The position numbers and the translations under genes are program-made. Below the pieces are notes generated by a model. That model ran no database searches. It saw only the letters and a program-made list of their open reading frames with translations, and was not told the origin of the DNA. A stretch of 64,000 bases of DNA from a candidate division CPR3 bacterium GWF2_35_18 (GTDB lineage: Bacteria > Patescibacteriota > CPR3 > GWF2-35-18): contig MESW01000007.1 in assembly GCA_001771135.1 (NCBI GenBank), positions 3,563-67,562 of the forward strand, written 5' to 3'. The first letter of the stretch is position 1. Every line of letters begins with the position of its first letter. This document shows positions 51,547 through 56,222 of this stretch, piece after piece.

Positions 51547-52686
51547 ATGAAAGTATATTTTACCGCTTCAGTATCATCAGGTCGGGCTTATCTTCTTCAA
51601 TATAAAATCATTATTAAAGCATTAAAGAGTCTTGGTCATAAAGTTCTATCTGAGGATGTGGCTTTTGATAGTGTTAACAAAAATGGAGATCGTTTAAAAA
51701 GAGACTCAACTCTTCCTCCAGCAGAGATTTTTTTAAGAGAACGAAGAGAAGTTGAAGAATCGGATATTGTGATTGCTGAAGTTTCTCAATCTTCTATGGG
51801 GGTAGGATTTTTGATAAGTCATGCTCTTCAGCAAAGAAAACCGGTTTTAGCACTTCTCTATGGAGATATCGAAGAAAAAAATATCTCTCCTTTTCTGGAA
51901 GGGCATCCCTCTCAAAATCTTTTTTTAGAACATTATACTGAAGATAACTTGAAGATTGTTTTAAAAAAGTTTTTCCATCATATGGAAGTGAATAACAAAC
52001 GTAAAGGTAAATTAGTCGTAGTTGATGGGAGTGATAGCTCTGGGAAGAAAACTCAAGTAGATTTATTATTACAATATCTTCAAAGTAAGAAATACAAAAC
52101 TAAGTATATTGACTTTCCTCGTTATTATTCATCTTTTCACGGTCGTACTGTAGCGCGATATTTAAAAGGAGAATTTGGAGGATTGAATGAAGTAAATCCT
52201 TATCTATCTTCACTAGCATACGCTTTAGATCGCTCGGCAGCAAAAGAAGATCTGGATGCGTGGTTACTTGAAGATAATATCGTTATTGCAAACAGATATG
52301 TTTCATCAAGCATGGCTTTTCAAACAGTTAGGCTTCCTGAAAAAGAAAGAGAAATTTTTTTGAAATGGTTGTACGAAATGGAATACAAAGAACATAAACT
52401 TCCTATAGAAGATATTGTTATTTATCTTTACGTACCGGTTTCTATTTCGCAAAAACTTATGGAGAATCGAGAAAAGAAAAAATACCTCAAGGGAAAAGAT
52501 AAAGATATTCACGAAAAAAATGTTGAATATCTTAAAGATGTTGAAAATATGTATCTAGAGCTTGTTAAAAGAAACAAGAAATGGGTGAAGATTAATTGTA
52601 TTGATAAAAAGGGAAACCTAAGATCCAAAGAAGATATCCATAGGGAAGTGATCAGTCTTTTAAAGAAAAAAATGATCTTTAAATAA
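51547..52686 (+). CDS. tmk: Fusion: N-terminal nucleoside 2-deoxyribosyltransferase / DNPH1(Rcl)-like domain (catalytic Glu replaced) + C-terminal thymidylate kinase
   Basis: N-domain VYFTASVSSGRAY ... DIVIAEVSQSSMGVGFLISHA (Rcl has DVVVAEVTQPSLGVGYELGRA; E to L here); C-domain P-loop VVVDGSDSSGKKTQ, DRY motif ANRYVSSSMAFQ. Confidence 0.8.
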   Translation: MKVYFTASVSSGRAYLLQYKIIIKALKSLGHKVLSEDVAFDSVNKNGDRLKRDSTLPPAEIFLRERREVEESDIVIAEVSQSSMGVGFLISHALQQRKPVLALLYGDIEEKNISPFLEGHPSQNLFLEHYTEDNLKIVLKKFFHHMEVNNKRKGKLVVVDGSDSSGKKTQVDLLLQYLQSKKYKTKYIDFPRYYSSFHGRTVARYLKGEFGGLNEVNPYLSSLAYALDRSAAKEDLDAWLLEDNIVIANRYVSSSMAFQTVRLPEKEREIFLKWLYEMEYKEHKLPIEDIVIYLYVPVSISQKLMENREKKKYLKGKDKDIHEKNVEYLKDVENMYLELVKRNKKWVKINCIDKKGNLRSKEDIHREVISLLKKKMIFK

Positions 52687-52690
52687 ATTG

Positions 52691-53182
52691 CTATTTTGTT
52701 AGTTCAAGAAACCGGAACTCATATTGATTTTCTTTTCGCCAATCGGATTCCCAGATTACTTTTTTGAATTTAGAATACTCTGGAAAGAATATTGAAGCAT
52801 TGAAATTACCTTTTACTTCGGTCAAATAGAGTTTATTAGCATATATCATTGCTTGCTGATAAATTTGACCGCCACCGATAATAAAAATCTCTTTTTGGTC
52901 GATATTTTTTGCTTCCTCAAGAGCGTTTTCTAAAGAATTAGCTACGATAATTCCATTTTGAGAAAAACTTGGATCACGGGTAATTACAATATTGGTTCTT
53001 TTAAGCAGTGGTTTTCCAATTGATTCAAAGGTCTTTCTTCCCATAATAATTGGATGGTTTGTAGTTAGAGTCTTGAATCTTTTAAAGTCTTCAGAGATAT
53101 GCCACAAAAGATTATTACCGTTTCCGATTTCGCGGTTAGGACCTATTGCAACGATGATACTAATAGTTGGTTTTGAGTTCAT
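52691..53182 (-). CDS. folA: Dihydrofolate reductase
   Basis: ISIIVAIGPNREIGNGNNLLWHISEDFKRFKTLTTNHPIIMGRKTFESIG. Confidence 0.85.
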   Translation of the reverse strand: MNSKPTISIIVAIGPNREIGNGNNLLWHISEDFKRFKTLTTNHPIIMGRKTFESIGKPLLKRTNIVITRDPSFSQNGIIVANSLENALEEAKNIDQKEIFIIGGGQIYQQAMIYANKLYLTEVKGNFNASIFFPEYSKFKKVIWESDWRKENQYEFRFLELTK

Positions 53183-53562
53183 TTACAGATTTCCTTGAAT
53201 GTTGTTTCTAATATTTTAGTAATATCAGCAAGATTCTCATATTCTATAAATTCATTGCTTATTTTTTGTAAAGAATATGCGGTTTTCACTCCTTTTTTAT
53301 AAATACAAACAATAGGTGTTTGGTATATGTCTGCCCAGCCTAACTCTATTCCTTGTCCAGTTGACGGAAAAGATACTTCCGCAAGTACTATATCTATAGA
53401 ATTTGATTCTAACAACTTCTTAATCTCGTACGGTTGTTTGCTATTTTCATGTGGAAAGATAAATTCGTACTTATTATTCAAAAAAGAGTTTCTTAACGGT
53501 TTATACAAACTATTTTTATAATCAGAATTTCTTAGATGAGAAACGTATATTTTCTTAAGCAT
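53179..53562 (-). CDS. Small nucleoside 2-deoxyribosyltransferase / DNPH1-like protein retaining the catalytic Glu
   Basis: DIVLAEVSFPSTGQGIELGWADIYQTPIVCIY (GxGxELG core); 4-nt overlap with folA start, 3-nt gap after thyA. Confidence 0.6.
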   Translation of the reverse strand: MLKKIYVSHLRNSDYKNSLYKPLRNSFLNNKYEFIFPHENSKQPYEIKKLLESNSIDIVLAEVSFPSTGQGIELGWADIYQTPIVCIYKKGVKTAYSLQKISNEFIEYENLADITKILETTFKEICK

Positions 53563-53565
53563 GGT

Positions 53566-54543
53566 TTAAACTTTATCTTTTCCAAATCCACCGATAACTG
53601 CTATAGGAGCTTTTATTGGTGGGTAAGGGTTATATCCTTCTAGGATAAAATCTTCAAATTTAAAGTCATCGATGTTCTTAATTTCTGGATTGATTTTCAT
53701 GGTTGGAAAGGGTTTTGGTTCTCGTGAAAGTTGTTCTTTTACCTGTTCCATATGATTTTCATAAATATGAACATCTCCGAAAGTGTGAACAAAATCTCCG
53801 GGTTCATATCCAGTTGCTTGAGCCAGTATCATGGTCAGAAGCGCATAACTAGCAATGTTAAAAGGTACGCCTAAAAAAACATCTGCGGAACGTTGATAAA
53901 GAAGTAGCGAAAGTTTCTTTTGTTCAACATTTATATTTACATGAAACATGGTATGACAGGGGACAATGGACATCGATTTTTCTTTTGAAGCTGACATTTC
54001 ATAGGAGAATTCAGGGTTCCAAGCGGAAACTAGGAAATGCTTTTTGTTTGGTTTTCGTTTAATTTTTTCAATCATCCAGGCAATTTGGTCTACAATTCGT
54101 CCGTCACTGCATTTCCATTTGCGCCATTGAACTCCATATACTGGACCGATATACCCCCATTTTTCCGCAAACTTCTCGTCATCTTTTATCTTTTGAGTAA
54201 AAGCTTTGATATCCAGTTCGGGAACTTCTTTATTATCCATGGCGTTTTGATAGCTTTTATATGCCCAGTCATCCCAGATATGCACATTATTATCGACAAG
54301 GTATTTAATGTTGTCGCAATTACCGGATAAAAACCATAGGAGCTCATGGATAATTCCGCGAAGAAAAACTTTTTTTGTGGTTAGAAGTGGAAAACCTTTG
54401 GAAAGATCAAAACGAATTTGGCGTCCAAAAACGCTTTTAAGTTTAATTCCGGTACTATGGCTAACCTTTATTGTTCCATTGTCTAAAATATCTTGCAGTA
54501 GATTGAGATATTGGTACTCTGGGTGTTGTTGATTTTGTGACAT
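53566..54543 (-). CDS. thyA: Thymidylate synthase (ThyA, long form with insertion)
   Basis: YLNLLQDILDNGT, FGRQIRFDLSKGFPLLTTKKVFLRGIIHELLWFLSG, catalytic Cys IVPCHTMFH, YQRSADVFLGVPFNIASYALLT. Confidence 0.9.
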   Translation of the reverse strand: MSQNQQHPEYQYLNLLQDILDNGTIKVSHSTGIKLKSVFGRQIRFDLSKGFPLLTTKKVFLRGIIHELLWFLSGNCDNIKYLVDNNVHIWDDWAYKSYQNAMDNKEVPELDIKAFTQKIKDDEKFAEKWGYIGPVYGVQWRKWKCSDGRIVDQIAWMIEKIKRKPNKKHFLVSAWNPEFSYEMSASKEKSMSIVPCHTMFHVNINVEQKKLSLLLYQRSADVFLGVPFNIASYALLTMILAQATGYEPGDFVHTFGDVHIYENHMEQVKEQLSREPKPFPTMKINPEIKNIDDFKFEDFILEGYNPYPPIKAPIAVIGGFGKDKV

Positions 54544-54784: not shown

Positions 54785-55714
54785 ATGAATGTTACTTTAG
54801 AAAATCTATTAGAAGCAGGTGTTCACTTTGGGCATCAAATTAAAAGATGGAATCCCAAGATGAAAAACTTTATTTACACTCATCGAAATGGGGTTCATAT
54901 TATTGATTTATCACAAACCCTGGAAATGATGCAAAAAGCCGCTTCCTATATTGAAAAAGAAGTGGCTAGTGGGAAAAATATAATCTTTGTGGGAACAAAA
55001 AGACAAGCTAAGGATATCATTGTAAAAGAGGCCGTTGCCTGTGGAGCAATGTACATTAATAACCGTTGGCCAGGAGGTTTAATCACAAATTTTCCTTCCG
55101 TAAAAAATACCATTTCTAAGTATAATAAAATGTTAAAAATGAAAGAGTCTAAAGAGACTGAGAAAATGACGAAAAAAGACCTTTCTGTTTTTAATAAAGA
55201 CTTGGAAAGAAAAGAAAAGCTTGTTGGGGGTATAAAAAATCTAACCGATAGACCAGATCTGCTTTTTGTTCTTGATGTTAAAAGAGAGATTAATGCTATT
55301 AGAGAAGCAAAACAAAAAGACATTCCTGTTATTTCAATTTGTGATACCAATTCGAATCCTGATCTTGTTACTATTGCAATTCCGGGGAATGATGACGCCA
55401 TAAAATCAATTACTCTTTTAGTTTCTTTTATTGCTGATGCGGTAGAAAAAGGTTTGAGCAAGAGATCGAAAGAAGTGAAAACAAAGATTGTTAAAGATTC
55501 TCCGAAGTTGTCAGAACTTAAAAATCATAAAAAAGATGTAGAATTAGATCATGTTGGAATTTCAGATGTTGTACTAGCAAAGTTAAAAGAAGAAGGAATT
55601 GAAACTTTATCTCAGCTTGAAGATAAAAAAGATGAGGAGTTACTGGCAATGAAAGGTTTGGGTCAAAAGGCAGTTACCAAACTAAAAGAAGACGTTAAAA
55701 ATTATAAAAAGTAA
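54785..55714 (+). CDS. rpsB: Ribosomal protein S2 with ~60 aa C-terminal extension containing a helix-hairpin-helix
   Basis: LLEAGVHFGHQIKRWNPKM...; extension GISDVVLAKLKEEGIETLSQLEDKKDEELLAMKGLGQKAVTKLKED. Confidence 0.9.
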   Translation: MNVTLENLLEAGVHFGHQIKRWNPKMKNFIYTHRNGVHIIDLSQTLEMMQKAASYIEKEVASGKNIIFVGTKRQAKDIIVKEAVACGAMYINNRWPGGLITNFPSVKNTISKYNKMLKMKESKETEKMTKKDLSVFNKDLERKEKLVGGIKNLTDRPDLLFVLDVKREINAIREAKQKDIPVISICDTNSNPDLVTIAIPGNDDAIKSITLLVSFIADAVEKGLSKRSKEVKTKIVKDSPKLSELKNHKKDVELDHVGISDVVLAKLKEEGIETLSQLEDKKDEELLAMKGLGQKAVTKLKEDVKNYKK

Positions 55715-55751: not shown

Positions 55752-56222
55752 ATGAGCGTAAATACTGAAGATATTAAAAAATTAAGGGAAGAAACTGGAG
55801 CGGGGGTATTAGATTGTAAAAGAGCTTTAGATGAATCTAAGGGAAACTTTGAAAAGGCAAAAGAAATTATCAAGGAAAAGGGTTTTTTAAAAGCAGATAA
55901 AAAAGCTTCTAGAGAAACCTCTCAAGGACTCATTGAGACTTATGTTCACGGTGGTGGAAAAGTAGGAGTAATGCTTGAGTTACTTTGTGAAACAGACTTT
56001 GTAGCTAGAAACTCAGATTTTAAAAAATTAGCGCATGAACTTGCAATGCATATTGCAGCTATGGAGCCAAAGAATATTAAGGAATTACTCAAACAGAATT
56101 ACATTCGTGATATGAGTGTTACAGTTGAAGCTTTAATTAAACAGCATATTGCCAAAATAGGAGAAAATATCGTCCTGAAGAGGTTTGAAAGATATGTTTT
56201 AGGGTTTCAATCTAAAGACTAA
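55752..56222 (+). CDS. tsf: Elongation factor Ts (unusually short, 156 aa)
   Basis: N-terminal UBA-like IKKLREETGAGVLDCKRALDES; dimerisation/core region truncated relative to 200-280 aa forms. Confidence 0.8.
   Translation: MSVNTEDIKKLREETGAGVLDCKRALDESKGNFEKAKEIIKEKGFLKADKKASRETSQGLIETYVHGGGKVGVMLELLCETDFVARNSDFKKLAHELAMHIAAMEPKNIKELLKQNYIRDMSVTVEALIKQHIAKIGENIVLKRFERYVLGFQSKD

Follow-up and report, generated by a model that had tools for sequence, protein, structure and literature searches.

A candidate division CPR3 bacterium, GWF2_35_18, carries two distinct relatives of the hydrolase DNPH1 (Rcl) at the dUMP/dTMP node of its metabolism. In the window analysed here, a 64,000-nucleotide (nt) stretch of contig MESW01000007.1 (positions 3,563 to 67,562), one of them is the N-terminal domain of a 379-residue fusion with thymidylate kinase (Tmk; 51547-52686, plus strand; GenBank KKP69483.1, annotated only as 'Tmk'), and the other is a 127-residue protein (53179-53562, minus strand; 100% identical to KKP69485.1, 'hypothetical') whose gene lies between those for thymidylate synthase (thyA) and dihydrofolate reductase (folA). 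On the evidence of its sequence the fused domain is a DNPH1/Rcl homologue that lacks the nucleophile glutamate of the family, and the small protein is a member of the nucleoside 2-deoxyribosyltransferase (NDT)/DNPH1 superfamily with an intact nucleophile, recognisable only by profile and fold. We read the first as a ligand-binding pseudoenzyme and the second as an active pyrimidine deoxynucleotide N-glycosidase, and give this reading as a whole a probability of about 0.5. The folds and the chemistry of both proteins are known ones, yet neither annotation reflects this; what is new is a conserved pseudo-DNPH1 module, fused or free, and a branch of the NDT superfamily, found mostly in the Candidate Phyla Radiation (CPR), that is tied to thyA and folA.

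The DNPH1-like domain of the fusion, as placed by phmmer and a residue map, occupies approximately residues 1-131 and is followed by a linker helix at residues 135-151 (51547-51996, plus strand). Its residues 2-144 align end to end with residues 4-141 of the rat and human DNPH1 chains (phmmer E 4.2e-9), which bears out the initial annotation of an Rcl-like domain joined to an intact Tmk. Only DNPH1/Rcl chains are matched, and in Pfam only PF05014, at 17.1 bits and thus below the gathering threshold of 28.8; a TIR, LOG or other flavodoxin-like identity was considered and rejected on these grounds. PF05014 is also the sole Pfam family matched by both NDT-like proteins of the window, below threshold in each, and the precomputed Pfam assignments flag neither region of the locus.

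In human DNPH1 the catalytic triad consists of Y24, D80 and E104, with E104 as the residue that becomes covalently linked to deoxyribose phosphate in the intermediate; a helical element concerned with water activation and contact with uracil O2 contains E55 and H56, S98 and S128' hold the phosphate, and the protein is an obligate dimer (PMC10603095). At the nucleophile position (human E104, rat E93) the window protein has Leu89 (codon 51811-51813, plus strand), within the motif GVGFLISHA (51799-51825, plus strand). Two positions farther on, where many relatives that read 'GTAFLME' carry a Glu, the residue of the window protein is Ser, and the alignment with DNPH1 places Leu opposite the nucleophile with no shifted Glu, so that the loss of the catalytic Glu proposed at the outset stands. 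The accompanying change of Tyr to Phe is also present, although it affects Y103, the neighbour of E104 (Phe88), and not the triad tyrosine, which is kept as Tyr4. The D80 position is occupied by Glu65, a conservative replacement found in all fused members, and E55 and the phosphate serines S98 and S128 are kept as Glu36, Ser83 and Ser114. Compared with the solved DNPH1/Rcl structures (4fyh, 2klh, 8qhq), the domain has the same fold, aligns over its full length and keeps the equivalents of Tyr24, Glu55, Ser98 and Ser128, but differs at E104, Y103, H56 and R30 and in being joined to Tmk.

The kinase domain (51997-52686, plus strand) is of the M. tuberculosis type and is intact by motif and fold. 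It scores 63.9 bits against PF02223 (cut-off 27), aligns over its full length with M. tuberculosis TMPK (PDB 1g3u, E 7e-15) and contains the P-loop DGSDSSGKKT (GK-x-T) together with the FPRY, ALDR and NRY (ANRYVSS) motifs. In the AlphaFold2 model of the fusion, with a mean predicted local distance difference test (pLDDT) score of 88.4 and a predicted template modelling (TM) score (pTM) of 0.85, the Tmk domain matches M. tuberculosis TMPK in Foldseek with TM-scores of 0.86-0.87; the same search returned no solved structure that spans both domains. The window protein departs from the M. tuberculosis type in its additional 150-residue N-terminal DNPH1-like domain and in having Asn for the Asp of the DRY motif; it also has Ser at the place of Asn100 of M. 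tuberculosis TMPK, and its Tmk domain, though of the type of NCBIfam NF005923, lies below the NCBIfam equivalog cut-offs (125 versus 193 bits).

The fusion belongs to a small family of uncultured organisms. A word-indexed homology search returned fragments and standalone proteins with no full-length fusions, and the census of the architecture was therefore taken from an exhaustive HMMER search of 1.84 billion representatives, in which the two domains occur together in about 20 clusters at 50% identity among 5050 Tmk relatives, all from uncultured organisms; a scan of metagenome contigs recovered the full fusion in three of the 80 Tmk loci kept. Literature searches for a DNPH1-Tmk fusion found no paper describing one, in agreement with the initial annotation, which had not recognised the architecture as a described family. 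The catalytic Glu is not absent throughout: it is present at the nucleophile column in P0146, P0149, P0157, P0164, P0228 and P0278, and such Glu-retaining fusions as P0146 carry a precomputed PF05014 match. Leu is found there in the window protein, P0001, P0147, P0151, P0152, P0155, P0158, P0160, L083 and L084, Phe in P0145 and P0150, and Gln in P0148, while P0156 and P0159 have a degenerate N-terminal region. These replacements by three different residues, with the Gln-bearing P0148 pairing with the Glu-bearing P0146, suggest at the sequence level that Glu was lost more than once; a neighbour-joining tree of the Tmk domains, built for counting the losses, is star-like with no resolved branching.

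The members that have lost Glu share a coherent signature. In a wider N-domain alignment of 118 relatives, the 19 Glu-less sequences all have Glu at D80 and all keep S98; Y103 is Phe in 18 and E104 is Leu in 17, and Tyr24 is kept in 17/17. The 99 Glu-containing relatives have Y24 and S98 without exception, H56 and D80 in 92 each, and Ser (89) or Thr (9) at S128. The Glu-less N-domains also remain well conserved, with an identity of 47% against 52% for the kinase between the window protein and P0145 and a mean of 33% against 45% over Glu-less pairs. The Glu-less domain also occurs as a complete standalone protein of 140-143 residues (P0308, P0316), and in another CPR genome (L165:5001-10423) a Glu-less DNPH1-Tmk fusion is preceded, at a distance of two genes, by a standalone copy, in a nucleotide-salvage cluster that further holds a fusion of an AAA_33/ADK-like kinase to a HAD phosphatase, a phosphoribosyl pyrophosphate synthetase, a phosphoribosyltransferase and GMP synthase. 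The signature, the conserved N-domains and the free copies together indicate a stable, selected pseudoenzyme subfamily and not a decaying remnant. Since standalone copies exist, the role of the Glu-less domain cannot depend solely on attachment to the kinase, and for the earlier suggestion that the domain channels substrate to the kinase no support was found. Two other standalone DNPH1-like proteins, P0004 and P0010, have a C-terminal tail resembling a ribbon-helix-helix DNA-binding motif, with Val at the nucleophile position in P0004; these may be nucleotide-sensing regulators.

In uncultured bacteria the same clade of Tmk proteins is, judged by domain content, a hub for gene fusions within the dTTP pathway, with members joined to dUTPase (P0235), Nudix (P0241), ThyX (P0277), DHFR/RibD_C (P0154) and a second Tmk (P0173). 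The 576-residue P0145 (L082:194-1924) combines a Glu-less DNPH1-like domain, Tmk and a TK1-type thymidine kinase (PF00265), and its gene is followed directly by one for serine hydroxymethyltransferase (SHMT) and then by rpsB and tsf. In joining consecutive or guarding enzymes of thymidylate metabolism the window protein resembles the multi-domain fusions of this pathway, among them bifunctional DHFR-TS (thymidylate synthase), Tmk-dUTPase, Tmk-ThyX, Tmk-Nudix, DHFR-Tmk and DNPH1-like-Tmk-TK, but it is not a simple two-activity fusion, as its partner domain is predicted to be catalytically dead. The window fusion would descend from catalytically competent DNPH1-Tmk fusions that persist in sister lineages. 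Given the repeated fusion of this Tmk clade to enzymes of the same pathway, the ancestral Glu-containing form likely coupled a sanitising hydrolase to a kinase that would otherwise phosphorylate aberrant dUMP analogues.

Placing the small protein requires profiles and structure. Its PF05014 score is 11.9 bits (threshold 28.8, E 0.25), an NCBIfam scan gave no match, and on its own the sequence matches DNPH1 over 36 residues (E 0.004). A profile of 40 family sequences reaches DNPH1 at E 4e-7, with the MilB/BcmB CMP N-glycosidases weaker, and hhalign aligns bacterial DNPH1-like proteins to residues 49-125 with a probability of 98.3%, which becomes 98.8% when the alignment is global. With the AlphaFold2 model (pLDDT 92.6) as a Foldseek query, the top 50 PDB matches are all DNPH1, MilB or BcmB, at TM-scores of 0.6-0.79. 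The initial annotation had treated this protein as a paralogue of the fused domain that retains its Glu in GQGIELG; the Glu is indeed there, as Glu73 (codon 53344-53346, minus strand), the predicted nucleophile aligned to DNPH1 E104, within TGQGIELGW (53335-53361, minus strand), and it is invariant in all 120 family members over which conservation was counted, but the protein and the fused domain are not close paralogues, nor is the protein demonstrably a DNPH1 in the strict sense. Also near-invariant in these members are His9, Tyr20, Pro37, His38, Ser64, Thr68, Trp76, Cys86 and Tyr108. The family comprises at least 428 clusters at 90% identity and occurs in 283 species-representative genomes, with Patescibacteria/CPR names on most of the listed records; the matching proteins range from 113 to 155 residues and include no fusions to ThyA or DHFR.

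With DNPH1 the small protein shares the AEVS-PS-G-G-ELG core, the Glu nucleophile and the fold (TM about 0.7), but it is shorter and has no GSIRGGR loop. Its model is matched best (TM 0.76-0.79) by the CMP or hydroxymethyl-CMP N-glycosidases MilB, BcmB and BlsM (4jem, 4jel, 4jen, 5vto), bacterial enzymes that act on nucleoside monophosphates and likewise use a Glu nucleophile. In MilB, Phe17 serves ribose specificity and Arg23 binds phosphate, and Tyr or Phe at the position equivalent to Tyr24 sets the preference for deoxyribose or ribose (PMC10603095). The small family differs in having Tyr at the Phe17 position in 111 of 120 members (Tyr6 of the window protein; Phe in eight), a residue whose match to Tyr24 depends on a global alignment of low confidence, and in having no conserved Arg at the place of Arg23; moreover MilB and BcmB belong to antibiotic biosynthesis, unlike the thyA-folA operon setting of the small gene. 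To the NDTs (PF05014; the Lactobacillus NDT and PDT) both window proteins are related by superfamily, and the covalent Glu mechanism is common to the group, but both score below the PF05014 threshold and the solved NDTs match far worse than DNPH1 or MilB; NDTs also lack a phosphate pocket (PMC10603095).

The genes around the small gene provide the main functional clue to its product. Of the best 80 loci, 25 have thyA upstream on the same strand, in 12 of them within 30 nt, and 24 have folA downstream, in 14 of them within 30 nt. Where thyA and the small gene stand about 440 nt apart, as they do recurrently, the gap corresponds to a Nudix gene of about 145 codons (e.g. L011:3912-4355); Nudix genes adjoin the small gene in 10 loci, and an operon of thyA, Nudix, small gene and folA is found in approximately 8-10. 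Occasional neighbours or insertions encode a HIT hydrolase (between the small gene and folA in L001), an HD/YfbR-like 5'-deoxynucleotidase, an NDT-like paralogue and SHMT (after folA in L022). Some genomes carry tandem members of the NDT/DNPH1 superfamily, for in two loci the gene immediately upstream of the small gene encodes another NDT/DNPH1-like paralogue that contains the Glu (L005:4515-4967, L021:4676-4921). It is this association of the small gene both with the thymidylate cycle and with house-cleaning nucleotide hydrolases that hints at function, and it would suit a DNPH1-like hydrolase that sanitises or salvages a pyrimidine deoxynucleotide; literature searches on bacterial DNPH1 beside thyA, or on hmdUMP (hydroxymethyl-dUMP) derived from ThyA, found nothing relevant.

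The compact dUMP/dTMP island envisaged in the initial annotation is real only in part: the cassette of thyA, small gene and folA recurs in about 25 of 80 loci, but the fusion adjoins it only in the window lineage. No conserved linkage of fusion and cassette was found: other fusion loci (L081, L082 and L084) share a neighbourhood running from tmk to rpsB and tsf without the thyA cassette, and the Tmk genes near other cassettes are unfused and encode ordinary proteins of 220-250 residues; the adjacency is thus lineage-specific. That one genome has a fused domain without the Glu and, alongside, a standalone enzyme that bears it is nevertheless suggestive and may reflect a functional hand-over.

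From the gene order, homology, residue states, family distributions and context, we infer ligand binding by the dead domain and both the hydrolase activity and the substrate class of the small protein. The 379-residue protein would be an active thymidylate kinase of the M. tuberculosis type. Its N-domain, having lost the Glu of the covalent intermediate, should be incapable of the double-displacement hydrolysis typical of the family, but most likely still binds a 2'-deoxynucleoside 5'-monophosphate (dNMP), because the triad tyrosine, an acid at the D80 position and both phosphate serines are kept and because human DNPH1 E104Q binds hmdUMP without cleaving it (PMC10603095). It would then act as a non-catalytic module of the kinase, binding a ligand in a regulatory or substrate-capturing capacity, dimerising, or both. 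The small protein, co-translated with ThyA and DHFR, would be catalytically competent through its Glu nucleophile. Its most likely reaction is cleavage of the N-glycosidic bond in a pyrimidine 2'-deoxynucleotide, dUMP-like or a modified dUMP, which would make it a pool sanitiser or salvage enzyme beside dTMP synthesis.

Several observations weigh against these assignments. For the fused domain, H56 is replaced by Asp37 and R30 by Ser in the window protein, 14 of the 19 Glu-less relatives have lost one phosphate serine through replacement of S128 by Pro, and some fused N-domains are badly degenerate (P0152, P0156, P0158, P0159); binding of dNMP without hydrolysis, as first proposed, is plausible for the window protein with its Tyr4, Glu65, Ser83 and Ser114. 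In the small protein the general acid D80 has no acidic counterpart in the alignment (Glu or Asp stands two positions beyond this column in 89 of 120 family members, but Lys49 in the window protein), the residue equivalent to S98 is Ser in 89 of 120 but Ala in 30, Ser97 is one position off S128 in the alignment, and residues 1-48, which have no detectable similarity to DNPH1, carry motifs unrelated to it. A phosphate pocket in the small protein, and with it a nucleotide in place of a nucleoside as substrate, is putative. About two thirds of the small-gene loci have no thymidylate genes nearby and no conserved neighbour, and the fusion adjoins the cassette in the window lineage only.

The loss of S128 and the degenerate members would fit a purely structural role in part of the family, and it is conceivable, if unlikely, that the Glu-less domain is throughout a scaffold for dimerisation or stability of the kinase that binds no nucleotide. 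S98 is lost in P0150, P0152 and P0158, P0156 and P0159 retain only a degenerate N-terminal region, the most invariant columns of the N-domain are those of core strands (KPVLAL, AEV), and DNPH1 itself is an obligate dimer (PMC10603095). A scaffold would, however, have little call for the Tyr24, D80-position acid and Ser98 that the aligned Glu-less members keep so strictly or for the two phosphate serines of the window protein, and the 140-residue standalone domain is found in nucleotide-salvage clusters. Retained but altered chemistry, for instance a single-carboxylate hydrolysis in which Glu65 serves as nucleophile or general base, appears improbable to us; we know of no precedent for it in the superfamily. 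The strictly conserved, non-random signature and the universal change of D80 to Glu in the fused clade, which leaves this residue as the sole acid beside the substrate position, would favour such chemistry, but the change is also seen in Glu-retaining fusions and so predates the loss of Glu, and removal of the nucleophile inactivates both DNPH1 (E104Q) and MilB (E103A), the mutants serving as substrate traps (PMC10603095). We thus prefer to regard the fused domain as a ligand-binding pseudoenzyme.

For the small protein the main rival to a hydrolase is an NDT-like transferase that moves deoxyribose or deoxyribose 5-phosphate onto uracil and so supplies dU or dUMP to ThyA. The Glu-nucleophile chemistry is the same as that of the nucleoside 2-deoxyribosyltransferases, the GSIRGGR loop of DNPH1 and a clear D80 or S98 pocket are missing, and the position of the gene next to thyA fits the supply of substrate in CPR bacteria, which are generally held to rely on salvage. 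We still judge a transferase distinctly unlikely, because the closest matches in sequence and fold are the hydrolases DNPH1, MilB and BcmB, with a lone NDT chain (7m5h) at E 0.0095, and because the Nudix, HIT and HD hydrolases that accompany it point to a module for degradation or sanitising. That the protein is instead a non-enzymatic adaptor of ThyA and DHFR, standing in for the linker of bifunctional DHFR-TS, would surprise us greatly: the gene is translationally coupled between thyA and folA in an arrangement that recurs, but the catalytic Glu and the pocket-like His9, Tyr20, His38, Thr68 and Trp76 are nearly invariant, thyA and folA are absent from two thirds of the loci, and the family matches, at 113-155 residues, include no ThyA or DHFR fusions. 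A bolder combination, which we entertain as a long shot, would make the small family a nucleotide-level deoxyribosyltransferase with a hitherto undescribed reaction, transferring 2-deoxyribose 5-phosphate from any salvaged dNMP to uracil to provide dUMP directly for ThyA in organisms without de novo pyrimidine synthesis, and the Glu-less module, fused or free, a sensor that gates Tmk against non-canonical dUMP analogues. Our preference remains an active N-glycosidase with a pyrimidine deoxynucleotide as its substrate.

DNPH1 is a current drug target whose role as a sanitiser of hmdUMP has been recognised only recently, and the presence of DNPH1-type domains at the thymidylate node, in Tmk fusions and in thyA-folA operons, supports an ancient link of this fold to the salvage of dUMP-like nucleotides or to their quality control. 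The laboratory E104Q substrate trap has a natural and conserved counterpart in the Glu-less subfamily, which makes a clean case for the study of pseudoenzyme retention. The small family, spread over hundreds of CPR species and so far labelled 'hypothetical', is a candidate for a missing step in the nucleotide economy of organisms usually regarded as dependent on salvage. As both proteins are small, their expression and assay should be simple.

The organisation of the locus is as first annotated, with open reading frames (ORFs) at the expected positions. On the minus strand thyA (53566-54543), the small gene and folA (52691-53182) form an operon in that order, with a 3-nt gap between thyA and the small gene and a 4-nt overlap of the folA start with the small-gene stop, and folA converges on the fusion gene with 4 nt between their stop codons. 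ThyA (325 residues) passes the thresholds of PF00303 (Thymidylat_synt, 354.6 bits, E 3.7e-106) and of the NCBIfam model TIGR03284 (396.9 bits, cut-off 108), and FolA (163 residues) passes the curated threshold of PF00186 (DHFR_1, 176.1 bits, E 5.7e-52). The locus is identical across 18 independently assembled contigs from several samples, and the fusion is therefore not an assembly error; a frameshift artefact is further ruled out by a 77%-identical orthologue with the same junction. Promoter-like and terminator-like sites are no more frequent at the locus than in shuffled sequence.

The neighbourhood consists of housekeeping genes, with mreBCD, PBP2, dprA and topA upstream and rpsB, tsf, frr, rseP and others, up to dnaX, downstream. 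A defence system, which NDT- or TIR-like modules might have implied, was rejected on the basis of this context and of a PADLOC search with no relevant match; a phage origin was likewise rejected, as PHROGs matches are weak and the small family is found on only one of 2.9 million viral contigs. Among the downstream genes, that for ribosomal protein S2 (54785-55714, plus strand) encodes 309 residues, including a C-terminal extension that weakly matches PF03118, the helix-hairpin-helix C-terminal domain of RNA polymerase alpha. EF-Ts (55752-56222, plus strand) has only 156 residues, much shorter than is usual for bacteria, and comparable lengths, 152 and 153 residues, are seen for the orthologues in L081 and L082.

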